NCBI GenBank assembly: GCA_934101425.1
Contig: CAKOQQ010000008.1
Span: 3,088-67,087 of the forward strand
Source: an uncultured Bacilli bacterium
GTDB taxonomy: Bacteria > Bacillota_I > Bacilli_A > RF39 > UBA660
Direction of reading: 5' to 3'
DNA: 64,000 bases
Shown here: one piece after another, positions 2,081 to 59,758 of the stretch
Layout of the letters: every line of letters begins with the position of its first letter
How positions within the stretch are numbered: the first letter of the stretch is position 1
Translations under genes and position numbers: made by a program
The notes under the pieces: model-generated
The model's input: only the letters and a program-made list of their open reading frames with translations
Database searches by the model: none
Told to the model about the DNA's origin: nothing

Positions 2081-2917
2081 CTATTTTTTATAGTTCTTTT
2101 TATATGCTATTTCTAATTCTCTTAATACTTTTTCTCTTAAAGACTGATAAAAAGTAATTATACTACTTATTGTTTCTTTAGGGTATTTAGCTAAATCACT
2201 ATCACTTAATACTAAGTCTAAATCTAGTATACGTTCTAAATCAGCTACTATTTCATATTTATTAAATGAACTTAAGAATTGATCATTTAGACTATATGTA
2301 AATTTAGAATCATCTATAAATGGTACAACATCTTTTTTTGGTGCAAATGGTTTAGATACTTTTCTCATTAAATGTAAATAATCTAGTATGTCATAAGCAC
2401 TTAAGCTATTATCTAATGTCATTATAGTTAAATGATTTAATAGTTCTAACCATTCTTTAGGTAGACCATACCCTCCACCATATTTTCTTCTATCTACTCT
2501 TTCAACTAAGTGTGAATTACTAGTTTTACTTTGATTTAAAATAAAATTTTGATTAGCTAAATCTTCAAGAGGTTTTGCATATATTATTTTTATTGAGCTC
2601 ATAGAACTTAATTCACTAGCTTCACTTTGAATTATATTTACCATATCTTTATATGTTTTATCTTGAAGTAAATGATTTCTGCTTAAAACAAATCCTTTAT
2701 CTTTTCCTAATTCACTTACTATTTGTTTTAATCTTTTAGCTACAAAATATTTATGATGATTAATTCCTTTTGAAAAATATACATATCTATCACAATCCTT
2801 AAATGGATTTACACTTCTGATATTGATATGTTCAAAACTTTTTCCACCTTGAAAACGATACCAAGCGCTAATATCATTAGTGTTTAATCCTTTAAGTGTC
2901 TCATCTAGTAATGCCAT
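2081..2917 (-). CDS. hypothetical protein
   Basis: Long ORF. Listed start is GTG at 2929; the ATG at 2917 preceded by GAGGTGG is the more likely start. No family recognised. Confidence 0.6.
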   Translation of the reverse strand: MALLDETLKGLNTNDISAWYRFQGGKSFEHINIRSVNPFKDCDRYVYFSKGINHHKYFVAKRLKQIVSELGKDKGFVLSRNHLLQDKTYKDMVNIIQSEASELSSMSSIKIIYAKPLEDLANQNFILNQSKTSNSHLVERVDRRKYGGGYGLPKEWLELLNHLTIMTLDNSLSAYDILDYLHLMRKVSKPFAPKKDVVPFIDDSKFTYSLNDQFLSSFNKYEIVADLERILDLDLVLSDSDLAKYPKETISSIITFYQSLREKVLRELEIAYKKNYKK

Positions 2918-2989
2918 ATGCCACCTCACGGCTAATTATATTAACATAATCATATATTTTAGTCAAATAAAAGAAGTATATGTATACTT

Positions 2990-5900
2990 CTATTTATTAT
3001 CTAATTCTTTATAATAATTGTATCTTGAAATAGCATTATTCTTATTAGATTCTAATAATTCTTTATAATGATCTTCATTTACTTTTTTTAGCATATTATA
3101 TCTATTTTGCATACTTAAGAATTCATCATATAAGTCAAAATTAACATTTTTAGAATCTAAAGTAAATTTCTTATCTACTGGATTATAATGGAATATTGGG
3201 AAGTATCCACATTCTGTTGCTAATTTTTCCATCAATATACTATTTTCCATACCACCTTTTATACCATGTGATATACATGGACTATAAGCTATTATAATAG
3301 ATGGTCCATTATAATTTTCTGCTTCTTTAAATACTTTTAGTAATTGATTCATATTAGCTCCCATACTTACAGTTGCTACATATACATGTGGATATGATAA
3401 GGCTATACGAGCTAAATCTTTTTTAGCATTTTGTTTACCTTTTGCTGCAAATAATGCAACTGCTCCTTTAGGGCTTGCTTTACTAGCTTGTCCTCCAGTA
3501 TTTGAATATACTTGACTATCAAGTACTAATATATTTACATTATCATTTGTAGATAATACATGATCTATTCCACCATATCCTATATCATATGCCCAGCCAT
3601 CACCACCGATAGCCCATACACTTCTTTTAGCGATATAGTCTTTTAATTCATTTAATTCTTTTGGACAAGTATTATAGTCTAGGCTATCATATACTTGTTT
3701 AGTTATATCATAATTATCTATATTATTTATATATAACTCAAATAATTCACGGTTAGGATTATCCATATTATTTTCCATTATAGTTTTAATTCTATCTCTT
3801 ATTGTTTTATTTCCAATAAGTATACCATAACCATATTCAGCATTATCTTCAAATAAACTATTAGACCAAGGTAAGTTATATGGAGTTGATGGTACTGATC
3901 CACCATAAATAGATGAACATCCTGTAGCATTAGCTATTATCATGTTATCGCCAAATAATTGAGTTAATACTTTTATATATGGAGTTTCTCCACATCCTTG
4001 ACAAGCTCCACTATATTTAAATTTAGATTCTGTAAATTGACTATTAATAACATTATCTTTATTTATATGTTTATCTTTTATATTTTTACTTAAATAGTTA
4101 TATATATCTTGTTCTTCACTATTTAAAGGAGTAAGCGATAACGCCTTATTAGGACAATTATTTATACATACTTTGCATCCAGTACAATCCATCACTGAGA
4201 AACTAAGTAAATAATAATAGTCTTTTAATGCTGGTAATACTGGTTTTTTACATTTATTTTTTATATTATCCGGTAATTTACTATATTCTTCTTCATCTAT
4301 TAAAAATGGTCTTATTACTGCGTGAGGACAAATAAATGAACATTTATTACACATAATACATTTACTTATATCACAAGTTGGAACAGATGATGATATTCCT
4401 CTTTTATCAAATTTACTAGTATTAGGCATAAATGTACCATCTCTAAGAGGTATAAATTTAGATACTGGAATACTATCTCCTTTTCTATCTGACATTTCTT
4501 CATATAAGCTAGTTCCATAAGATACAAATTTACCTTCTAAATTGTCTAAATTTACTTCTTTTAAATAATTAACTGCTTCATCAATTGCTTTATAATTAGC
4601 TAAAACTACATCATCACCTTTTTTAGAAAATTTGTTTTTAGCATATAATTTCATTTCTTCTTTTGTTCTATCATAATCTATTACATTTGATAAATATAGA
4701 ATTACACTTTCCATAATAGTACTTATTTTACCAGGCAAGTTAATTTCTTCTGCTAGTTTATAAGCATTTATTGTATAGAATTTTATATTTTTTTCTAATA
4801 TTATTTTTTTTATATCATTATTTATTTTATTTAATTCATCAATATCTTTTTCGGTATTTAATATAAAAATACCATTTTCTTTTATATGTTCTAACATATT
4901 ATATTTATCTAAATATGTATCTTTAGTACATACTACTAATTTAGGATTTTCTACATAATATGTAGATTTTATTTTATTGTCATCAAATCTTAAATGACCA
5001 ATTGTTACTCCACCTGATTTTTTAGAATCATATTGAAAATATCCTTGTACATATTTATCTGTTAAGTTACCTACTAATTTTATAATTGATTTACAAGCTG
5101 ATACCATTCCATCAGATCCATACCCATATACTAAGAATTCTAAAGAATTACTTATTTTATATGTTTTATCAACTTCTAAACTTAAATTAGTAACATCATC
5201 ATTTATACCTATAGTAAAGTTATTTTTAGGATTATCAAGCATATCAAATACAGCTTTTATCATAGCGGCATTGGTATCTTTACTAGATAATCCATATCTA
5301 CCACCTACAATATTTATATTTTTATCTTTTAAAGCTGCTACTACATCTAAATATAATGGTTCACCAATACTTCCTGCTTCTTTAGTTCTATCTAAAACTG
5401 CAATACTTTCTACTGTAGAAGGTAAGACATTAAGTAAATGTTTTACACTAAATGGTCTATATAGATGTACTTCTATAAGGCCTATATCACCCTTTTCATA
5501 ATCAATAACACTTTTTATAGTTTCTGTTACTGATCCCATTGCTACTATTACTTTTTTAGCTGTTTTACTACCATAATAATTAAATGGCTTATAATCAGTA
5601 TTAGCGATTTTATTTATATCCATCATATATTTTTCTACAATATCTGCTACTTTATTATAATCATTATTTCTAGATTCTGTTATTTGAAAATATACATCAT
5701 CGTTTTCTGCAGTACCTCTTGTAAATGGTTTATTTGGATTTAGGGCTTTAGCTCTAAATTTATTTATACTATCATAAGGAACTAAAGGTTTTATATCCTC
5801 TAATTCTAAAGCATTTATCTTATCTATTTCATGACTAGTTCTAAAACCATCAAAGAAATGTAAAAATGGAATACTAGATTTAATACTAGATAAATGAGCT

Positions 5901-30220: not shown

Positions 30221-31750
30221 TTAATATTGACTAGCAATCATAACAGATATTAACGAATATGAAGTCTTAATGGAAATAGTTTTATTTTCTTTATCAATCT
30301 GATAAATGGGGGTTTCTTCCCATTTTTGTGTTTTCAAATTAAAACTTAAAATTCTAATATCATTTTCATCAAATGTTAATGTTGGAACTGATATATCAAT
30401 ATTATGGACATTTTTTTCATCTTTATCATAACAATCAATACCATAATTTGATATATTAAATACACTAGTAATCGCGTTTGACCCCTCAATAAGTTCTTTT
30501 AAAAATTCTGTCTCAGAAGTGGTTTGCTTAGTTCCAGAGGCAGATAATAAATCAACTAATTTAATTTTTCCATCATTAAATTGTTTAATTTTATTGAACA
30601 CTATTTCTGGTAATTCTTCATATTCACTAAAATCATCAGAAATATAGTGTCCATAAGCACTATCATTAATTACATGTAAACTATTATCTGCACTAGCAGC
30701 ATTATGTACTAATATTTCATTTTCAGTAATTAAGTAGTTATGATTATTTGCTATTGTCAAGTTATATACATTCACTGAATTATCCAAATTAAGAACTTCT
30801 ATATTTTTTATACTAGTTTTTCCGCCAATACTAGCTGATAATACATCTCCCACTTTTAATTCATATGCTCTAACCCATCCTTTATCAAGTACATAATATT
30901 GATGCTTTTCTGTAGAAGTTATTACTTTATTATTTTTTAATGTTATTTTATATAATTTATTATTTTTTGAAATCATAGTATCAATAACTCTATTTAATTC
31001 TTTTTCGTTACTTTCAATATTTATTGTATATACATAATCACCAATTTTAATATCTTCAATATTCTTTAAACCATTTCTTGTTAATACTTTTGTTCCTGCT
31101 ACAAAACACGTTGAAATTTGAAACAATCCTTTTATTACTGCAACATTTCCAAAAACATCTTCACTTTCAATTTTATAAATATTTGATGCTTTATTAGAAG
31201 TCCCTAAATAAGTTTTTTCATTCCCTCTATAAACAAGTATACCATTTACAAAATATCTTATTTCTTTTATTCCACTCGTATCTGAAGTATTTACATCTAT
31301 TTTATAATTACTAGTACTAGTATTAGTAATTACAGCTGATAAAAGTGGTGCATCTTTTTCAGCACTTCTAAGTATACATTCACTTTCATTTGTTTTAGTG
31401 CTTACAATACTTCCATCACTTTTAATTTCAATACAGTAATCATTAACATACATTTTTCCATATGCATTACCATTAGTATCATAACTTAAATAACCTTTAC
31501 TTGCTTTATCTCCCTCATATGTAAGTGTACTACCCGATAAATCTATATTTTTTACTGTTTCTCCTTCCATTATTTTTTGCATATAATATGTTTTTGCAGC
31601 ACTTACTATATTTCTTGCACTTGCTTCTGCCGCACTTTTTTTAGAGTCTTCTATAATGTTTAATACGGCTGGTACCGCTATTAGTGCAATAACTGCTAGT
31701 ATTACTATAACGGCTAATAACTCTATTAGGGTAAATCCTTTCTTTTTCAT
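30221..31750 (-). CDS. type IV pilin-like protein fused to a Hint (intein-like) autoprocessing domain and a 159-aa C-terminal domain (paralog E)
   Basis: MKKKGFTLIELLAVIVILAV prepilin signal (G-1, F+1, E+5). Residues 1-125 are shared with four paralogs. Residues 215-350 run CFVAGTKVLT...TEKH...ILVHN (Cys1, TxxH, terminal HN); next residue is Ala. Confidence 0.85.
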   Translation of the reverse strand: MKKKGFTLIELLAVIVILAVIALIAVPAVLNIIEDSKKSAAEASARNIVSAAKTYYMQKIMEGETVKNIDLSGSTLTYEGDKASKGYLSYDTNGNAYGKMYVNDYCIEIKSDGSIVSTKTNESECILRSAEKDAPLLSAVITNTSTSNYKIDVNTSDTSGIKEIRYFVNGILVYRGNEKTYLGTSNKASNIYKIESEDVFGNVAVIKGLFQISTCFVAGTKVLTRNGLKNIEDIKIGDYVYTINIESNEKELNRVIDTMISKNNKLYKITLKNNKVITSTEKHQYYVLDKGWVRAYELKVGDVLSASIGGKTSIKNIEVLNLDNSVNVYNLTIANNHNYLITENEILVHNAASADNSLHVINDSAYGHYISDDFSEYEELPEIVFNKIKQFNDGKIKLVDLLSASGTKQTTSETEFLKELIEGSNAITSVFNISNYGIDCYDKDEKNVHNIDISVPTLTFDENDIRILSFNLKTQKWEETPIYQIDKENKTISIKTSYSLISVMIASQY

Positions 31751-40134: not shown

Positions 40135-40210
40135 TGGCGCCTGATGTAGGACTCGAACCTACGACCTAACGGTTAACAGCCGTGCGCTCTACCGACTGAG
40201 CTAATCAGGC
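40135..40210 (-). tRNA. tRNA-Asn (GUU), CCA encoded
   Basis: Hand-folded cloverleaf: GCCTGAT acceptor, GCTC/GAGC D-stem, loop CTGTTAA, GTAGG/CCTAC T-stem, G73, CCA; 76 nt. Confidence 0.9.
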
Positions 40211-40213
40211 ATA

Positions 40214-40289
40214 TGGCGCTCAATGTAGGACTCGAACCTACGACCTAACGGTTAACAGCCGTGCGCTCTACCGACTGAGCTAATTGAGC
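40214..40289 (-). tRNA. tRNA-Asn (GUU), CCA encoded, second copy with different acceptor stem
   Basis: Identical to copy 1 from position 8 to 65. Acceptor is GCTCAAT/ATTGAGC instead of GCCTGAT/ATCAGGC. Confidence 0.9.
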
Positions 40290-40290
40290 A

Positions 40291-40541
40291 AATATAAAAC
40301 AGCACTCTCCACTAAAAGGGACGAATTACTGTTGTATCCGCGGTACCACCCAATTTATTATATTAAATATAATCACTTTTATGATATGTAATGTGGTAAC
40401 GGATTACAACCGAACTACTCTACTTAATTCGAATAGCTAGCTCCTTAGTGTTATTCATAATATACTTTATTGTTAGCTTCCACCATGCCTAACTCGCTTT
40501 AATTAGTACTTATTACTACTTCTCTATATCTTCGCCTTATG
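40291..40541 (-). promoter_or_regulatory. T-box leader, Asn specifier (AAC, overlapping AAU)
   Basis: T-box motif AAATTGGGTGGTACCGCGG (40356-40338). Antiterminator GGG[TGGTACC]GCG...CGTCCC. Competing terminator ACAGTAATTCGTCC/GGAGAGTGCTGT plus TTTTATATTT. Stem-I elements AGTA, GGTGGAAG. Specifier region ATGAATAACACT. Confidence 0.8.
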
Positions 40542-43468: not shown

Positions 43469-43996
43469 TTACATCTCTATAGATGTTAAAACCCAATCAT
43501 AATTTTCTATATTGAATATACTGCCACAATACTCACATTTACCACTTGTGTTAACTGATATGTTAGCTCCACAACCTGGGCATTTTCTTGCAGATGAGTT
43601 ATATCCGCTATTTATAGTTTTTTCTAATGTTAAATAATTTATATTTTCTACTCTTCTAGTATTATCACCAGATACAACATTAAATTTTTCATCTACTTTA
43701 TAGTCCATATATCTAGATATTAATTTAACATTTATACATATTTTATTATCTTTAATTTCTATATTAGTAATATTTGTATCTTTTACATTTAATTCATCAT
43801 ACATTTGTCTTAAGTGTTTTTCTTTTAATTCTTTTAAAATAAGCTCATACTTCTTTTCTAAGTTATCACTTATAAAGTGTCTTACTCTATCTAAATCATC
43901 CATCATTATTGATGTATATAGCATTATAAATATGTTATTTACTTTTGTTATAAACATTGCTTCATTAAAATCTTTATCTATACTTCTAATATCCAT
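43469..43996 (-). CDS. Tim44-like domain protein with C-terminal zinc ribbon
   Basis: 175 aa. Tim44-like layout ending in WVLTSIE. CPGCG...CEYCG. Start overlaps the upstream stop by 1 nt. Confidence 0.6.
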   Translation of the reverse strand: MDIRSIDKDFNEAMFITKVNNIFIMLYTSIMMDDLDRVRHFISDNLEKKYELILKELKEKHLRQMYDELNVKDTNITNIEIKDNKICINVKLISRYMDYKVDEKFNVVSGDNTRRVENINYLTLEKTINSGYNSSARKCPGCGANISVNTSGKCEYCGSIFNIENYDWVLTSIEM

Positions 43997-44865
43997 TATA
44001 CATTCCTTTGATTAACACATGTTTTTTTGCTCATAACATATTCTTTTGCATCTACTACTACTACACTTCCACAGTATTCACATTTAGCCCCTGTTACTAC
44101 ATCTACCTTAGCTCCACAGTTTGGACAAATAGTTTCTTCGCTAGTATTTTCTTTTTTAACAAATGTAATTTCATATTCGATACTTATTTTTTTTGAACTA
44201 GAACCACGTACTACTTTATCATTTTCATCTACTACATAATCATACATTTCAACATTTAAGTATATAGAAACATTTAACATACCATTTACATTTTCAGCTT
44301 TATATACTTTTACACCTTTTAATTCAAAGTCTTTCATTATATTTTTTTGTTTCTTCATTCTTAAAACATCTAATTGCATTTTATATGAATTATATATTTC
44401 ATCAGTAGTTAATTTTCTTAAAGTATCATAATCAAAATTCATCCATGCAATTTGAATATCTTTATATTTTTCAAATACTAATGCTTTAAATTCTTCTAAA
44501 GACATACCAAGAATTTTATCATCTTCTATTTCTTTATATAATGCTTCTCTACTACTTCTTGTAGATGCTTTATATCCCGTATTATCTTTTGTAAAATATA
44601 TAAATAATACTACACATATTATTACAAGTAAAAATGTAAAACTAGAGCCACTATATGATCCAGATGAACTTCTGCTACTACCAGACCAAGAAGATCCTCC
44701 ACTATCCCATGAAGACGAGCCCCCTCCGCTAGACCAAGAGCCTCCTCCTCCATCATAAGAACTATCCCATCCACTATCTGCTTTTACATTTGGTATTACA
44801 AATGTAATTGCAACTAGTGAAAAAATAGATATAATTGTAATAAATATTTTCTTCTTATTATTCAC
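43996..44865 (-). CDS. membrane protein: signal/TM, Gly-Ser-Trp-rich region, TM, Tim44-like domain, zinc ribbon
   Basis: 289 aa. DSGWDSSYDGGGGSWSSGGGSSSWDSGGSSWSGSS low-complexity tract. CPNCG...CEYCG. Confidence 0.6.
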   Translation of the reverse strand: MNNKKKIFITIISIFSLVAITFVIPNVKADSGWDSSYDGGGGSWSSGGGSSSWDSGGSSWSGSSRSSSGSYSGSSFTFLLVIICVVLFIYFTKDNTGYKASTRSSREALYKEIEDDKILGMSLEEFKALVFEKYKDIQIAWMNFDYDTLRKLTTDEIYNSYKMQLDVLRMKKQKNIMKDFELKGVKVYKAENVNGMLNVSIYLNVEMYDYVVDENDKVVRGSSSKKISIEYEITFVKKENTSEETICPNCGAKVDVVTGAKCEYCGSVVVVDAKEYVMSKKTCVNQRNV

Positions 44866-44981: not shown

Positions 44982-46046
44982 CTATTGTGAAATATTAGAT
45001 TTTAAGACAGTTACAACTGGGCGCACACCGAAGCCTCCTATATGAGACACGCTGAAGTAGTACAATCTGCCACCTTGACTCACGAACCAAGCGCTGGAAG
45101 AAAAGCCGGAATGTGCAGTATTTGTCCAGTATCCATAAGTACTAGAATCTGCTACATTACATCCGAATCTTGTACAATCCTTTATATTATCAAATAGCCA
45201 TGCATATCTATTTGTTCCAGCATCTCCAGTGTATTGTGTTCCTAATGTGTTATTATGGAAGTAATACGCTTGATTATCCCAATTTGGATATCCTGTTATT
45301 GTTGCTATTTCTCTTGCTTCTATTAGTCTAGCATTTATACTTTTGTTCCAACTAGATGTATCACTTTTTAGTTGTTTTAATAATGTAATTGGTCCTTTAC
45401 TGTTATTTCCATGAAGATCATATTCTGCTTCTGTTCCACCTGATTCAATATAATCTTCTTCCGATATCCATGCAACTAATGCCGTTGTATTATGGTCTAG
45501 TAGTAGGTTTACTGTATCATTTCCTTCGTCATTAAAGATATACCATCTCATACATCCTGTTTTAGTCCCTGTAGTGCTTACTGCTTCACTACCACTACAT
45601 TTCTTATTTGTTTCTGGATTATAGTATACTACTGTTCCATTTGCGTATGTAGTTACTTGTGGAATGTCTATAGTGCATTCACTTTCATTTGTTTTAGTGC
45701 TTGTTATGGTTCCATTAGATGATACTTCAATGCAGTATCCTGATATATACATTTTACCACTTACATTACCGTTAGTATCATAACTAAGTAACCCTTTTTT
45801 TGCTTGTTCTCCATCATATTTTAATGTGTTAGTGCTTAAATCAATATTAGAATTTGTTTTATTATCCATTATATTTTTCATGTAATGTGTTTTTGCAGCA
45901 CCTACAATACTTCTTGCACTTGCTTCTGCTGCACTTTTTTTAGAATCTTCTATAATATTTAATACTGCTGGTGTTGCTATTACTGCAATAACTGCTAGTA
46001 TTACTATTACAGCGAGTAACTCTATTAGTGTAAATCCTTTTTTCAT
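44982..46046 (-). CDS. bimodular type IV pilin-like protein (paralog A)
   Basis: Start moved to MKKGFTLIELL (ATG 46046, GGAGG upstream). Pilin module plus a Cys-containing C-terminal module ending GVRPVVTV. Confidence 0.85.
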   Translation of the reverse strand: MKKGFTLIELLAVIVILAVIAVIATPAVLNIIEDSKKSAAEASARSIVGAAKTHYMKNIMDNKTNSNIDLSTNTLKYDGEQAKKGLLSYDTNGNVSGKMYISGYCIEVSSNGTITSTKTNESECTIDIPQVTTYANGTVVYYNPETNKKCSGSEAVSTTGTKTGCMRWYIFNDEGNDTVNLLLDHNTTALVAWISEEDYIESGGTEAEYDLHGNNSKGPITLLKQLKSDTSSWNKSINARLIEAREIATITGYPNWDNQAYYFHNNTLGTQYTGDAGTNRYAWLFDNIKDCTRFGCNVADSSTYGYWTNTAHSGFSSSAWFVSQGGRLYYFSVSHIGGFGVRPVVTVLKSNISQ

Positions 46047-46070
46047 ATATTCCTCCTCATATAAGGTATT

Positions 46071-46115
46071 AAAAAAAATCACAAAACTCTAGGAAATTCC
46101 TAGTTCTTGTGATTT
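46071..46115 (-). promoter_or_regulatory. intrinsic-terminator-like hairpin in the leader of pilin A
   Basis: Minus strand AAATCACAAGAACTAGG-AATTT-CCTAGAGTTTTGTGATTT followed by a T-run (T8 in total), about 25 nt upstream of the pilin ATG. Confidence 0.6.
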
Positions 46116-46195
46116 ATATACATGACTAATAGGTGGTTATTAAATATTAACCCCCCCCCACAAATATAAGAAGTATTATAATTTGTATTAGCCAT
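46100..46195 (-). CDS. candidate leader peptide (31 aa) containing the G9 tract
   Basis: AAGGAAGTGA RBS-like, then ATG. Peptide MANTNYNTSYICGGGLIFNNHLLVMYINHKN. Stop TAG (46102-46100) is inside the hairpin 5' arm. Confidence 0.35.
   Translation of the reverse strand: MANTNYNTSYICGGGLIFNNHLLVMYINHKN
46151..46159. repeat. C9/G9 homopolymer tract
   Basis: Nine consecutive C on the plus strand in a very AT-rich context. Encodes GGG GGG GGG of the leader ORF. Confidence 0.9.
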
Positions 46196-46218
46196 ATATT
46201 CACTTCCTTACTATATTT

Positions 46219-46247
46219 ATTATATCTTCTGATTTCGGTAATGTCAA
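46219..46247 (-). promoter_or_regulatory. consensus sigma-A promoter of pilin A leader
   Basis: TTGACA-17 nt-TATAAT. Confidence 0.7.
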
Positions 46248-46276
46248 TATTTTATAATTTTATTTATGGACATCTA

Positions 46277-47284
46277 TCAAGACATCAATAAAGCTTTATC
46301 TACAGTAATAACTGGGCGAATACCGTAATTGTCTGTATCCAAGTAGTATCTGAAAAAGAAGCCATAGTTGTTCACGATTCCATTGAGGTAAAAATTTCCG
46401 GAATATACATTGCCTGTCCAGTATCCCTCGTTACTAGAATCTGCTACATTACATCCAAATCTTGTACAATCTTTCGTGTTATCAAATAGCCATGCATATT
46501 TATTAGTTCCTGCTGCTCCTTCATAAGGCGTATTTGAATTTGTATGGAAATAATATGCATCGCTTCCTGCTGTATTTCCTGTTATTCTGACGATTTCGCT
46601 TTCTTCTATTAGTCTTGGGTTTATACTTTTATTCCAAGAGCTTGTATCACTTTCTAGTTGTGCTTTTACTTCAACTGAGTCATTAGTATTTGTACCACTT
46701 GATGCCAATGCAACAAATGCTGTCGTATTATGATCTAGTAGTAGATTAACTATATCATTTCCTTTATCATTAAATGCATACCACCTCATACATCCTGTTT
46801 TAGTTCCAGTAGTGCTTACTGCTTCAGCACTTGTACATTTACTGTTTGTTTCTGGATTATAGTATACTACTGTTCCATTTGCGTATGTTGTTACTTGTAG
46901 AACGTCTATATCACATTCACTTTCATTTGTTTTAGTGCTTGTAATAGTTCCATCAGATGATACTTCTACACAATAACCACTTATATACATTTTTCCATAT
47001 GCAGTACCATTAGTATCATAACTAAGTAATCCTTTTTTAGCTTGTTCTCCATCATATTTTAATGTGTTAGTGCTTAAATCAACATTAGAATTTGGTTTAT
47101 TATCCATTAGATTTTCCATGTAATGGCTTTCTGCAGTTCTTACTATATTTCTTGCACTTGCTTCTGCTGCACTTTTTTTAGAGTCTTCAATAACATTTAA
47201 TACTGCAGGGGTTGCTATTAGCGCTATTACTGCTAGTATTACTATTACTGCTAAGAGCTCTATTAATGTAAATCCTTTTTTCAT
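46277..47284 (-). CDS. bimodular type IV pilin-like protein (paralog B)
   Basis: MKKGFTLIELLAVIVILAVIALIA. Same module order; shorter middle region. AAGGAGG RBS. Confidence 0.85.
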   Translation of the reverse strand: MKKGFTLIELLAVIVILAVIALIATPAVLNVIEDSKKSAAEASARNIVRTAESHYMENLMDNKPNSNVDLSTNTLKYDGEQAKKGLLSYDTNGTAYGKMYISGYCVEVSSDGTITSTKTNESECDIDVLQVTTYANGTVVYYNPETNSKCTSAEAVSTTGTKTGCMRWYAFNDKGNDIVNLLLDHNTTAFVALASSGTNTNDSVEVKAQLESDTSSWNKSINPRLIEESEIVRITGNTAGSDAYYFHTNSNTPYEGAAGTNKYAWLFDNTKDCTRFGCNVADSSNEGYWTGNVYSGNFYLNGIVNNYGFFFRYYLDTDNYGIRPVITVDKALLMS

Positions 47285-47304
47285 TTTTCCTCCTTACTAT
47301 ATTT

Positions 47305-47333
47305 AGTATATCTTCCGATTTCGGTAATGCCAA
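47305..47333 (-). promoter_or_regulatory. promoter of pilin B (same promoter family, no leader module)
   Basis: TTGGCA-17 nt-TATACT, then AAATATAGTAAGGAGGAAAAATG. Spacer is near-identical to the A/C promoters. Confidence 0.6.
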
Positions 47334-47348
47334 TATTTTATAATTTTA

Positions 47349-48428
47349 TTATTGGGCTTCTAACTGATCTTTCAATAAAGCTTTATCTACAGTGATAACT
47401 GGGCGAACACCAAAGGTGTCTATTTCGGCTAAAACTCCTGATCCCATACCCCCTCCGGCGCTTACTCCCCATGCTCTATAAGAATTGTTGGAATATACAG
47501 TGCCTGTCCAGTATCCATCGTTACTAGAATCTGCTACATTACATCCAAATGTTGTACAATATTTCGTGTTATCAAATAACCATGCATATTTATTTGTTCC
47601 TGCCGCTCCTTGATAAACTATTTGTGTGTTATCATGGAAATAATAATAATCTATACCTGCTGTCCATGTTGTGTTATTAGTTATTTTAGCTATTTCACTT
47701 GCTTCTATTAATCTAGCATTTATAGTTTTATTCCATGTGCTCGTATCACTTTTTAGTTGTTTTAATAATGTAATTGGCCCTTTACTATTATTTCCATAGT
47801 CTCCCCATTCTGCTTCTGTTCCACCTGCTGCAATATAATCTTCTTTTGATATCCAATCTACAGCTGCTGTTGTATTATGATCTAGTATTAAATTAACTTT
47901 AGATGATCCTTCATCATTAAATATATACCACTTCATACATCCTGTTTTTGTTCCTGTCACGCTTACTGTTTCCATTTTATGGCATGGCATGTTTATTTCA
48001 GGATTATAGATTACTACTCTTCCATTAGCATATCTTTTTTGTGGCTTTTCTATAATGCATTCATTTTCATCTGTTTTATCACTTGTAATAGTACCATTAT
48101 TTAGTATTTCTACACAATAACCACTTATATGCATTTTTCCATATGCTATTCCGTCTTCATTATAGTATAAATATCCTTTACTTGGTTTTTTTCCACTATA
48201 AGATAGTATATCACTAGATAAATCAATACCTGTTATTTCTTCATCTTTGTCTAGATTACTTGTATAATATTTTTCTGCTATGTTTTTTATCATTCTAGCA
48301 TCATTTTCTGCACTTTTCTTTTTTGCATTATTTACTGTTTTCTTTACTGCTGGTACTGCTATTAGTAGTATTACTGCTAGTATTACTATTACTGCGAGTA
48401 ACTCTATTAGGGTAAATCCTTTTTTCAT
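47349..48428 (-). CDS. bimodular type IV pilin-like protein (paralog C)
   Basis: MKKGFTLIELLAVIVILAVILLIA. Pilin module more diverged; C-terminal module conserved (GVRPVITV). Confidence 0.85.
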   Translation of the reverse strand: MKKGFTLIELLAVIVILAVILLIAVPAVKKTVNNAKKKSAENDARMIKNIAEKYYTSNLDKDEEITGIDLSSDILSYSGKKPSKGYLYYNEDGIAYGKMHISGYCVEILNNGTITSDKTDENECIIEKPQKRYANGRVVIYNPEINMPCHKMETVSVTGTKTGCMKWYIFNDEGSSKVNLILDHNTTAAVDWISKEDYIAAGGTEAEWGDYGNNSKGPITLLKQLKSDTSTWNKTINARLIEASEIAKITNNTTWTAGIDYYYFHDNTQIVYQGAAGTNKYAWLFDNTKYCTTFGCNVADSSNDGYWTGTVYSNNSYRAWGVSAGGGMGSGVLAEIDTFGVRPVITVDKALLKDQLEAQ

Positions 48429-48452: not shown

Positions 48453-48496
48453 AAAAAAATCACAAAACTCTAGGAAATTCCTAGTTCTTGTGATTT
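48453..48496 (-). promoter_or_regulatory. intrinsic-terminator-like hairpin in the leader of pilin C
   Basis: Same sequence as 46071-46115 except the T-run is 7 rather than 8. Confidence 0.6.
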
Positions 48497-48576
48497 ATAT
48501 ACATGACTAATAGGTGGTTATTAAATATTAACCCCCCCCCACAAATATAAGAAGTATTATATTTTGTATTAGCCAT
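48481..48576 (-). CDS. candidate leader peptide (31 aa) containing the G9 tract
   Basis: Same as 46100-46195 with one substitution (N5K). Stop TAG is inside the hairpin. Confidence 0.35.
   Translation of the reverse strand: MANTKYNTSYICGGGLIFNNHLLVMYINHKN
48532..48540. repeat. C9/G9 homopolymer tract
   Basis: Nine consecutive C on the plus strand. Confidence 0.9.
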
Positions 48577-48599: not shown

Positions 48600-48628
48600 A
48601 TTATATCTTCCGATTTCGGTAATGTCAA
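48600..48628 (-). promoter_or_regulatory. consensus sigma-A promoter of pilin C leader
   Basis: TTGACA-17 nt-TATAAT. Confidence 0.7.
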
Positions 48629-57895: not shown

Positions 57896-58437
57896 CTATT
57901 TTTCTTTTAATGGCGCAAGTATCATAGTCATAAATCTTCCTTCTAATTTAGGATTTTGTTCTATGACAGCGATATTTTCTAGAGTTTTTGCAAATCTAAG
58001 TAATACTTCTTTTCCTAATTCTGGGTGAGCCATTTCTCTTCCCTTAAATCTTATACTAACTTTAATCTTATGTCCTTTTTCTAAATATTTAGTAGAGTTT
58101 TTAACTCTAGTATTAAAGTCATGAATATCAATTGAAACTGATAATCTATATTCTTTAACTTCTAAAGTATTTTCTCTTTGTCTTTTTTGATTTTCTTTTT
58201 GTCTTTTCTTAGTTTCATATTTGTATTTATTGTAATCCATAATTTTACATACTTGTGGATTAGCATTTGGACTAATTAAAACTAAATCAAAACCTGCATA
58301 AGTTGCTAAAGTTCTAGCATCTTCAATTCTTTTGATACCTAATTGTTCTCCATTAGGACCTATAACCATTACTTCTTTTGCTCTTATTTGTTCATTTATA
58401 AACAAATCTCTGTCTTTACTAGCGATATCCCACACCT
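57896..58437 (-). CDS. infC: translation initiation factor IF-3 (probable non-AUG start)
   Basis: INEQIRAKEVMVIGPNGEQLG onwards is canonical IF-3. The listed upstream Met extension covers GGAGGTG; an in-frame ATC at 58437 lies 8 nt after it. Unusual AUU-class starts are the rule for infC. Confidence 0.85.
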
Positions 58438-58440
58438 CCA

Positions 58441-58564
58441 AATAAAAAAGTAGATACAAAGTATCCACTTAAAACCATATCAAAAATATTATAATGGCAT
58501 TTTACCCAAAGACTTAATCAATCGGGTGAGAAGTGGATACTTCTTCTTTCCTTTTTCAATCACT
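58441..58564 (-). promoter_or_regulatory. L20-leader-like attenuator upstream of infC
   Basis: Terminator AGTGGATAC-TTT-GTATCTACT+T6 (58455-58481). An upstream segment GAAGTATCCACTTC can pair alternatively with AAGTGGATACT. Position matches the Firmicute infC-rpmI-rplT leader. Confidence 0.5.
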
Positions 58565-58687: not shown

Positions 58688-59758
58688 TTAAGAGATGATA
58701 GATTTTGAGATAGTGATAACTGGGCGAACACCGTAGCTGTCTGCATCATCCACGTTGCCGCGGTTCAATTGGCCATTGCGGACCACGTGCCAAGCGTCGT
58801 GAGAATCGCCGGAATATGCAGTGTTTGTCCAGTATCCCAACAAAGTACTAGAATCTGCTACATTACATCCATATGTTGTACACTTATATGTATTATCAAA
58901 TAACCATGCATATTTGTTTGTTCCTGCTGCTCCACTATAAGGTGAATTTGAATTTATATGGAAAAAATAATAACTTCCTCCTGCTGTCCATCCATTATTT
59001 CCTGTTATAGTAGCTATTTCTCTTGCTTCTATTAGTCTAGCATTTATACTTTTATTCCAACTAGACGTATCACTTTTTAGTTGTTTTAATAATGTAATTG
59101 GTCCTTTACTGTTATTTCCATAACTTCCATATTCCGCTTCTGTTCCTCCAGCAGCAATATAATCTGCTTTTGATACCCATGCAAATGTTGATGTTGTATT
59201 ATGATCTAGTAGTAAATTAACTGTTGATGCTCCTTCATCATTAAAGGTATACCACTTCATACATCCTGTTTTAGTTCCTGTAGTGCTCACTGCTTCAGAG
59301 CTTGTGCATTTAGTATTTGTTACTGGATTATAATATACTACTGTACCATTTGCGTATGTAATTACTTGTGGAGTATCTATAGTGCATTCACTTTCATCTG
59401 TTTTAGTGCTTGTTATAGTTCCATTAGATGATACTTCTACGCAGTAACCACTTATATACATTTTACCACTTACATTACCATTATTATCGTAAGTAAGATT
59501 TCCTTTTTTAGCTTGTTCTCCATCATACTTTAATGTGTTAGTGCTTAAATCAATATTAGAGTTTGGCTTATTATCCATTATATTTTTTATATAATGTGTT
59601 TTTGCTGCACCTACAATACTTCTTGCACTTGCTTCTGCTGCACTTTTTTTAGAGTCTTCTATAATATTTAATACTGCAGGGGTTGCAATTAAAGCAATAA
59701 CTGCTAATATTACTATTACTGCTAATAACTCTATTAATGTAAACCCTTTCTTTTTCAT
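58688..59758 (-). CDS. bimodular type IV pilin-like protein (paralog D)
   Basis: MKKKGFTLIELLAVIVILAVIALIA. Very similar to paralog A over the first ~170 aa. C-terminal module ends YGVRPVITI. Confidence 0.85.
   Translation of the reverse strand: MKKKGFTLIELLAVIVILAVIALIATPAVLNIIEDSKKSAAEASARSIVGAAKTHYIKNIMDNKPNSNIDLSTNTLKYDGEQAKKGNLTYDNNGNVSGKMYISGYCVEVSSNGTITSTKTDESECTIDTPQVITYANGTVVYYNPVTNTKCTSSEAVSTTGTKTGCMKWYTFNDEGASTVNLLLDHNTTSTFAWVSKADYIAAGGTEAEYGSYGNNSKGPITLLKQLKSDTSSWNKSINARLIEAREIATITGNNGWTAGGSYYFFHINSNSPYSGAAGTNKYAWLFDNTYKCTTYGCNVADSSTLLGYWTNTAYSGDSHDAWHVVRNGQLNRGNVDDADSYGVRPVITISKSIIS

Follow-up and report, generated by a model that had tools for sequence, protein, structure and literature searches.

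The window examined here, a 64,000-nucleotide stretch (GC ~26%) of contig CAKOQQ010000008.1 (assembly GCA_934101425.1) from an uncultured Bacilli bacterium, encodes five proteins, A–E, that share an N-terminal type IV pilin module of ~125 aa, four of which end in a module bearing a short hypervariable region whose codon pattern resembles that left by a diversity-generating retroelement (DGR). The genes, which lie on the minus strand together with all of their features described below, are A (44982–46046; 354 aa from its ATG, the open reading frame [ORF] being extendable to an upstream GTG at 46082), B (46277–47284; 335 aa), C (47349–48428; 359 aa), D (58688–59758; 356 aa), and E (30221–31750; 509 aa). 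In A, the prepilin leader and pilin module span residues 1–~130 and a second, DUF6273-like module residues ~134–354; B has the same architecture without a 16-aa insert after an LDHNTT motif, C has a divergent pilin module (~56% amino acid identity to D), and D is a strain-variable hot spot flanked by a Met-gamma-lyase-like gene and the L20 leader/infC operon. Over their full lengths, B is 72%, C 61%, and D 79% identical to A; E, at 37%, has only the pilin module in common with it. The five ORFs, with the pilin-type start and common module reported in the initial annotation, were all verified, as were the second, Cys-containing module with its listed sequence blocks in A–D and the missing insert of B. 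The similarity it had seen between A and D over their first part amounts to 93% identity in the pilin module; the identity falls to 76% in the second module excluding the variable region and to 37% within that region. Its description of a five-member family holds for the pilin module, beyond which E is a different protein.

The N-termini of all five proteins read MKK(K)GFTLIELLAVIVILAVI, with a cleavage-type layout MKK(K)G/FTLIELLAVIVILAVIALIA (the slash marking the cleavage point), and display every feature of a class-III signal peptide, viz., a basic leader, Gly at –1, Phe/Met at +1, Glu at +5, and a hydrophobic helix of ~20 residues. The Pfam N_methyl (PF07963; 27.5–31.9 bits, cut-off 21.2) and TIGR02532 (31.6–33.3 bits, cut-off 16.3) profiles recognize each of them, and a pair of cysteines in the pilin module (Cys105/124) is conserved across all five in a multiple alignment. 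The closest sequence match of this module in the PDB is PilE1 of Streptococcus sanguinis (8pfb, residues 6–120, E 1.3e-7). Among 83 diverse pilin-type proteins from 77 related loci, which derive from metagenome-assembled genomes (MAGs) of uncultured gut ‘Bacilli/Tenericutes’, G(–1) and E(+5) never vary and F(+1) hardly does, a constancy that speaks for selection for processing by a prepilin peptidase and for assembly, and against a role limited to anchoring in the membrane. Having both an N_methyl segment and an independent ~225-aa module, A–D conform to the published definition of modular pilins (PMC8179133) and, as judged from these profile matches, are bimodular type IV pilin-like proteins, in line with the reading first given to them. 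Many proteins with the same C-terminal module (P0123, P0128, P0129, P0132, and P0136, among others) start with KGFAISS- or KGFVST-type sequences, which resemble class-III signal peptides and lack the Glu at +5.

The C-terminal module of A–D (C-module, ~225 aa) contains the conserved Cys pairs 150/165 and 291/296, bringing the total of conserved cysteines in these proteins, along with 105/124, to six. The DUF6273 profile (PF19789) aligns by its C-terminal part only with C (20.7 bits) and D (20.5 bits), below its cut-off of 23.5, and has no match to A and B; in relatives, its matches reach E 2.1e-19, and a precomputed PF19789 match is present on ~15 of 120 close homologs. An early guess that the module is of the DUF1566/Lcl-C type came close in its lectin-like character and missed the family, for DUF6273 is the better match: Lcl_C/DUF1566 (PF07603) finds only C (E 0.11; 13.3 bits, cut-off 34.9), in a region overlapping the DUF6273 match. 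Sequence searches of the PDB with single sequences and profiles matched only the pilin helix and nothing in the C-module. AlphaFold2 with a diverse alignment produced a C-module model with a pLDDT of 97.4 and a pTM of 0.92, for which the top Foldseek match in the PDB is 9qa6, the Thomasclavelia ramosa IgA protease (E 1.5e-3, probability 0.90, TM-score 0.38), whose N-terminal domain is annotated as DUF6273; nothing in the PDB fell below E 0.001, and the formylglycine-generating enzyme and several C-type lectins appear lower down with low probability. An earlier model from a shallow alignment (sequences 64–84% identical to the query; pLDDT 77.8) was set aside; its Foldseek matches were noise such as Hsp90, and against BFVD it recovered a phage DUF6273 protein (probability 0.95, TM-score 0.42–0.49). 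DUF6273 has been described as a DGR target of the C-type-lectin type, the last part of which is the variable region (VR) (PMC10743442; bioRxiv 10.1101/2024.10.15.618418). The DUF6273 matches in relatives and the Foldseek result favor the lectin-like reading, and the C-module is thus probably DUF6273-like with a C-type-lectin-like fold. At E <= 1e-3, the family comprises 1337 cluster representatives (clustering at 50% identity), and 71 of the top 150 have a GFTLIE-type N-terminus. A single copy of the module may follow the pilin module; tandems of as many as four or five and attachment to other N-termini also occur. By this range of contexts, it is a mobile, autonomous domain family.

In an alignment of A–D, the divergence between the paralogs is greatest in the final ~45 residues, and a VR lies between the motifs GYWT and GVRPV: residues 309–339 in A (45030–45122), 291–320 in B (46325–46414; one codon shorter), 309–339 in C (47412–47504), and 312–342 in D (58733–58825). 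The VR of A is made up of NNC/NNT codons in an adenine-poor scaffold, and that of B has many AAY/TAY/TTC codons. In D, its GC content is 0.55 as opposed to 0.31 for the remaining gene and ~0.26 for the window, while in C the protein scaffold is the same, the third bases are not preserved, and the GC content at third codon positions (GC3) is 0.36. Each VR is bounded at its 3' side by a GC-rich element, GGTGTTCGCCCAGTT in D (58718–58732), with equivalents at 45015–45029 in A, 46310–46324 in B, and 47397–47411 in C. The DNA sequence of this 3' end (GGTGTKCGCCCAGTT) is conserved throughout the copies and strains, and also encodes the GVRPV strand; it resembles the initiation of mutagenic homing (IMH) element, the homing signal of DGRs, and might play such a part here. 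In an alignment of 124 sequences, comprising 120 close homologs (65–88% identical to D) and the four window copies, residues 315–342 of D include 20 columns with an entropy above 2 bits, most of them above 3, alternating with invariant or nearly invariant residues between the invariant GYWT and GVRPV, and as many as 87 distinct VRs are present. The variable columns hold mostly Y, N, S, G, D, A, F, R, and T, and Cys is frequent in one of them; such residues can be reached from AAY by changing the first and second bases. Conversely, K, E, Q, M, and W make up 5.3% of the residues at these columns versus 18.6% at other variable columns (p 6e-49).

The differences at the nucleotide level follow the same pattern. 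Between A and D, the VR differs at 15, 15, and 4 first, second, and third codon positions, against 37, 38, and 75 in the remaining gene, such that the third base is kept in 16/20 differing codons of the VR as against 31/106 elsewhere (p 3e-5). The A–B and B–D pairs behave alike, and the pattern is absent from pairs with C, whose VR looks either decayed or written from another template. In the consensus of the four equal-length VRs, TCCGGCnnTTCTnnCnnCGCTTnGnnCGTGnnnnnnnnTGGCnnnTTGnnCnnCnnCnnCGTGnnTnnTnnAGnnnnCnnCGGTGTnCGCCCAGTT (in outline TCCGGCnnTTCTnnCnnCGCTTnGnnCGTG...nnCnnCnnCnnCGTG...GGTGTnCGCCCAGTT), adenine occupies only 2 of the 55 invariant core positions versus 42% of the remaining gene (p 1e-10); this scaffold recurs in other strains, loci, and metagenomes. 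The GC3 of the VR is 0.50–0.59 in A, B, and D and ranges from 0.08 to 0.64 across relatives, a spread that fits a mix of recently written and decayed VRs. Two nearly identical proteins, P0055 and P0084, differ at 8/311 positions outside the VR and at 23/32 inside it, whereas other near-identical pairs have identical VRs; this points to all-or-none replacement, as expected from retrohoming. The initial annotation had correctly placed the divergence in the C-terminal end of these proteins; what it had missed is that the hypervariability of the last ~31 residues of the module is not ordinary divergence and, by the codon and adenine statistics, carries the signature of DGR adenine mutagenesis. With good, if indirect, support from these statistics, we infer that a DGR authored the VRs.

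Recombination adds to the variation of these genes. The paralogs are mosaics; C, for one, has 55–60% nucleotide identity to the other copies in the pilin module and a C-module that is in places 80–94% identical to theirs, and the quartet-informative sites are split 21/20/41, supporting all three topologies and clustering along the gene. Two copies at different loci are identical over ~400 nt, with no differences from nt 488 to the VR, and have different VRs. At the D locus, three strains have flanks that are 99–100% identical around pilin genes that are 48–96% identical per 100-nt window and encode proteins of 356, 342, and 339 aa. Thus, the variable repertoire with gene conversion among copies that had been suggested at the outset is upheld by the quartet split, the ~400-nt identical stretch, and the replaced alleles of D; evidently, alleles are replaced as whole genes and copies convert one another, alongside the process that acts on the VR.

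Two of the genes further appear to be subject to switching. A and C each have a ~170-nt leader, which B and D lack, following a sigma-70-type promoter of perfect TTGACA-17-TATAAT form (46219–46247 for A, with an identical one at 48600–48628 for C). The leader of A contains a 31-codon ORF (46100–46195), encoding MANTNYNTSYICGGGLIFNNHLLVMYINHKN followed by a stop, with a G9 tract at 46151–46159, and ends in a terminator hairpin with U8 (46071–46113), the 5' arm of which is formed by the last 5 codons and the UAG stop of the leader ORF. The leader of C is laid out likewise, with its ORF at 48481–48576, a G9 tract at 48532–48540, and a hairpin with a U-run at 48453–48494; E has a leader from which the G tract is absent. 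The predicted leader fold has a free energy of –43.6 kcal/mol (z-score –3.9), and no Rfam family covers it. A G8 or G10 tract would cause the leader ORF to stop directly after the tract, and among other samples with an identical C protein, the tract upstream of its gene occurs as G6, G9, or G10, a homopolymer length difference between samples of the kind that defines a phase-variable contingency locus. In the related loci (1.53 Mb), where ~0.03 G9 tracts are expected by chance, there are 36 tracts of at least seven G, of which 35 are on the strand of the pilin genes and 21 within 300 nt upstream of a pilin start. Many relatives have a poly-G of 9–12 and in one case of 21 upstream of their pilin genes (e.g., L002:936, L015:19254, L030:9764, L045:9950, L065:9951), often placed exactly between the TTGACA –35 and –10 boxes, as in classical phase-variable promoters. 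The expression of A and C is probably phase-variable via a poly-G leader-peptide attenuator, the effect on expression being deduced from the layout of the leader.

Gene E points to a wider use of the same carrier. Its pilin module is followed by an Ig-like domain (weak Big_7), a PT-HINT/bacterial intein-like domain (30701–31108, aa 215–350, CFVAGTK...LVHN; E 9e-19), and a 159-aa C-terminal domain that matches no family and is common only to one 98%-identical homolog. Pilin N-termini are present in 54 of the 120 best homologs of E, and the HINT ‘HN’ motif lies 3–15 residues from the protein end in 110 of them. A classical polymorphic toxin was considered and rejected, as there is no ORF of at least 50 aa downstream that could be an immunity gene and 110/120 homologs end after HINT; from its domain order, E resembles a self-cleaving protein of the bacterial intein-like or Hedgehog type more than a toxin cassette. 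The combination of pilin, Ig-like, and HINT domains recurs (P0391–P0510), with HINT at the extreme C-terminus suggesting a Hedgehog-like self-cleavage of the pilin. Other relatives (L006, L022, L038, L058–L061, L064, L067–L070, and others) encode pilin fusions of 300–1077 aa to DUF285, BspA-type leucine-rich repeat (LRR), Ig-like, F5/8 type C, fn3, or ALK/LTK-like glycine-rich domains, and a possible second DGR-type C-terminus (WF.RGG...AG...SRLVL / GFRLAL) is seen in L028, L045, L061, and L072. The fusion of the pilin module to so many domains suggests that it is a general display carrier in this lineage.

The pilin genes are embedded among housekeeping and sporulation genes, including those for MraY, MurF, a ClpC-like protein, infC-rpmI-rplT, PBP1A, Nth, and GatCAB (Pfam-annotated gene calls), and they adjoin highly expressed translation operons: D lies directly upstream of the L20 leader (58436–58554) and the infC-rpmI-rplT operon, and another copy in a relative (L088:9541–11020) directly follows rplQ, where the ribosomal protein/rpoA operon ends. 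An origin of these genes in a prophage or mobile element was ruled out by the conserved housekeeping flanks, which are 99–100% identical between strains. Directly downstream of A, two proteins with Tim44-like domains are encoded (43469–44865), one of which combines a signal/transmembrane segment and a long Gly/Ser/Trp/Asp-rich region with a C-terminal zinc ribbon; at 40138–40541, also on the minus strand, a T-box leader (128 bits) precedes two tRNA genes. Pfam annotation of every called gene found no T2SSE, T2SSF, or Peptidase_A24 in the window, and tblastn with the pilus-assembly proteins of a relative found nothing there, in agreement with the earlier remark that the pilin genes sit amid housekeeping operons with no assembly genes among them. 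Across the 77 related loci, the pilin genes are nearly always scattered in this manner, and hence the lack of nearby assembly genes is no anomaly for the lineage. Two relatives do have a PilB-type ATPase within 4–7 kb of a modular pilin: in a related MAG (L054), genes for T2SSF (616–2466), an A24 prepilin peptidase (2488–3255), a Ppx/GppA-like protein, T2SSE (4216–5535), and two minor pilins lie ~4.5 kb from such a pilin gene, and in a relative of 24.7% GC (L089), T2SSE, accompanied by two minor-pilin-like genes, lies 6.3 kb from a pilin of the N_methyl + DUF6273 type with 43–45% identity to A–D. The T2SSE ATPase is 76–93% identical over more than 120 clusters of gut Bacilli, many of them named Bacilli MAGs, and its motif in this lineage is GATGTGKST. 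On the synteny of these two relatives (GPR-S20-transglutaminase-Lon-Gate-pilins-T2SSE), an assembly locus might have been expected just past the right end of the window; that place is taken by a Zn-ribbon protein and SpoIVA. The assembly machinery is nonetheless likely to be present in this genome, and A–D would be processed by a prepilin peptidase and assembled by a type IV pilus machine encoded elsewhere in it.

Given these features, we propose that A–D are modular type IV pilins with DGR-written lectin-like heads that vary further by recombination and, in A and C, by phase switching, an explanation of the whole that we hold with moderate confidence. The conserved class-III signal peptide and pilin module would act as the carrier and the ~225-aa, presumably disulfide-stabilized DUF6273-type domain as a ligand-binding head, with the 30–31 residues between GYWT and GVRPV as its binding surface; the proteins may sit at the pilus tip and serve as adhesins or ligand-binding proteins. 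A reverse transcriptase (RT) would copy a template repeat (TR) with adenine-specific errors, and the resulting cDNA would replace the VR, turning ~20 AAY codons of the template into NNY and leaving the adenine-free scaffold unchanged; the template is expected to measure ~100–120 nt and to have the scaffold TCCGGC-AAT-TCT-AAC-AAC-GCTTGG-AAC-GTG...GGTGTGCGCCCAGTT. Template and enzyme would lie outside the window, acting in trans on dispersed targets, or might have been recently lost. Segment and allele exchange among the paralogs and the on/off switching of A and C would provide further variation. In the latter, the poly-G tract in the 31-codon leader peptide would set the reading frame, and only an in-frame ribosome would get to the stop codon within the terminator stem, melting the terminator and permitting read-through into the pilin gene; this attenuation logic is read off the leader layout. 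The fullest version of the proposal, three layers of variation consisting of an unlinked trans-acting DGR, recombination, and poly-G switching by attenuator or promoter spacer, all on type IV pilins of AT-rich gut Bacilli, is advanced only tentatively.

Several observations weigh against this proposal. The codon signature is absent from the VR of C; the match of the C-module fold to solved structures is marginal (best E 1.5e-3, TM-score 0.38); no pilus-assembly gene has been tied to this species in the window and ~10 kb past its right end; and no TR or DGR RT is found in the window, in 101 loci (1.58 Mb), in IMG/VR, or in the four matches of a metagenome scan. Those four, obtained with the VR scaffold pattern (which has no match in IMG/VR), are all VRs within pilin genes, and the contigs of metagenome assembly OJAW01, although bearing at least four VR copies (three of the scan matches and a second copy in L085), likewise have no TR. 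Further, exact copies of C and D recur in 14–15 contigs from different samples and cohorts, implying that the VRs are stable in the short term and not constantly in flux. Scans for a TR that tolerate changes at adenines returned self-matches only, both with the four window VRs against the window and all loci and with the VR of each relative against its own locus, and a similar VR occurs in only one phage locus (L102), where neither RT nor TR lies within 14 kb. The only RT among the fetched loci, an RT-like match beside a pilin gene in L064 (8558–9868), was rejected as a candidate, being a group II intron reverse transcriptase/maturase and not a DGR enzyme; ~130 nt separate it from a downstream gene for an 873-aa protein in which a pilin is fused to two ALK/LTK-like Gly-rich repeats. 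Recent loss of the DGR is a serious rival: an ancestral DGR, or one borne transiently by a phage or other element, could have written the VRs and then vanished, leaving recombination only to reshuffle the repertoire. The failure to find TR and RT in the loci, databases, and contigs scanned, the VRs identical across many samples, the VR of C devoid of the third-base and GC signature, and the GC3 of 0.1–0.2 in the VRs of many relatives, as expected for decay in an AT-rich genome, are all consistent with such a relic, and phages are reported to keep DUF6273 targets after DGR loss (bioRxiv 10.1101/2024.10.15.618418). We nevertheless regard it as unlikely, in that the GC3 of 0.50–0.59 of the VRs of A, B, and D in a genome of ~26% GC and their nearly adenine-free scaffold point to recent writing, 87 distinct VRs occur among 124 sequences, and cellular DGRs are documented to act on distant targets, in some cases over 100 kb away from the RT (PMC5758913), so that absence from a 64-kb window is no evidence of absence. 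Metagenome contigs often end in or beside pilin genes (L078, L096, L098, L100, and L101, and a 26.6-kb contig ending within A), which is expected of a repeat family and may explain why retroelement and assembly genes are hard to link to them. That no retroelement was ever involved, ordinary mutation under strong diversifying selection and cassette-like gene conversion among paralogs having sufficed, would accord with the clear mosaicism, the allele replacement, and the missing TR and RT. However, selection on the protein cannot account for synonymous third bases that are preserved where first and second bases are scrambled (16/20 vs 31/106), for the avoidance of adenine in the invariant scaffold (2/55), or for the near exclusion of residues needing a third-position purine (5.3% vs 18.6%), and we consider it very improbable.

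The pilus itself can be doubted on other grounds, as the class-III signal peptide and pilin module might instead serve as a device for secretion, for anchoring, or for building a short pseudopilus near the cell wall. Type II secretion pseudopilins and archaeal ‘bindosome’ sugar-binding proteins are analogues for such non-pilus display. The same N-terminal module is indeed fused in relatives to DUF285, BspA-type LRR, Ig-like, F5/8C, Gly-rich, and HINT domains, dozens of such genes are dispersed in each genome outside pilus operons, and some relatives of the module have KGFAIS-type N-termini devoid of E5. Yet what is conserved goes beyond the leader to the full ~125-aa, presumably globular pilin module and its putative disulfide, E5 is invariant in the GFTLIE class, relatives have a complete pilus gene set including minor pilins, and the modular pilins of S. 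sanguinis do enter real pili (PMC8179133). Display without a true pilus thus seems to us improbable, though in no way negligible, and we retain modular type IV pilins with DGR-written heads as the preferred explanation.

Modular type IV pilins are thought to explain many functions of simple filaments. They are widespread and diverse (PMC8179133), with PilB (vWA module) and PilC (lectin module) of S. sanguinis as examples (PMC8179133, PMC9934059). The proteins described here resemble these two in joining a small pilin module with a class-III signal peptide, via a short linker, to a bulky, putatively ligand-binding module in a monoderm host, and S. sanguinis PilE1 is the closest solved relative of their pilin module. 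They differ in their heads, which are DUF6273-like with a hypervariable region as opposed to vWA or concanavalin-like, and in forming a dispersed multi-copy family outside any pil locus. Apart from DGRs, no natural system for the targeted hypermutation of proteins is known in prokaryotes. Their C-type-lectin-fold targets include Mtd of a Bordetella phage, TvpA and remote targets of Treponema denticola, LdtA of Legionella (DUF1566 class), and the DUF6273 ‘tentaclins’ of phages (PMC5758913, PMC10743442), and multiple dispersed targets per genome are documented in Treponema (PMC5758913). Shared with these are a VR that closes a domain of the C-type-lectin type, here a probable one, the NNY-type variable codons, the adenine-poor scaffold, and the GC-rich conserved 3' boundary; the differences are that no TR, RT, or Avd is found for these genes in the sequences searched and that the carrier is a type IV pilin module. 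The present system combines modular pilins and DGR targets, both of known kinds. As to DGR targets with a type IV pilin-type domain, the literature consulted offers no more than the mention in passing of a ‘GspG-type pilin’ domain among ‘scarcely represented’ ones (PMC11661182), and type V pilus adhesins diversified by DGRs have been described in gut Bacteroides (bioRxiv 10.1101/2024.11.15.621889). The latter are likewise adhesive pilus components of a gut commensal, diversified by a DGR as those here appear to be; they belong to another pilus class and phylum, and their cassettes have been demonstrated, whereas the one here is postulated. The Vlp and Vsa systems of Mycoplasma have homopolymeric tracts in promoters, and the pilE/pilS system of Neisseria operates by gene conversion. 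Like them, the genes analyzed here form a multi-copy, putative surface repertoire with upstream homopolymers and mosaic alleles; unlike Vlp/Vsa, the tract is in a leader peptide with a terminator and not in the promoter spacer (the position seen in many relatives), and the proteins are pilins and not lipoproteins.

If our proposal is true, Gram-positive gut commensals would diversify pilus adhesins in a manner comparable to the type V pili of Bacteroides, and A–D with their relatives would constitute the first described DGR-diversified repertoire of type IV pilus adhesins and show that a small genome can harbor many unlinked targets of a DGR. The leader switch would represent a new type of phase-variable attenuator, and its poly-G leader-peptide/terminator layout, if verified, a new and simple way of switching genes stochastically. 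The GYWT...GVRPV scaffold, the NNY codons, and a high GC3 in an AT-rich genome may be used to flag such genes in metagenomes, also where the retroelement is on a different contig. More generally, these genes would provide a testable model for surface variation in uncultured gut Bacilli, in which hypermutation, recombination, and phase variation would act on one scaffold.

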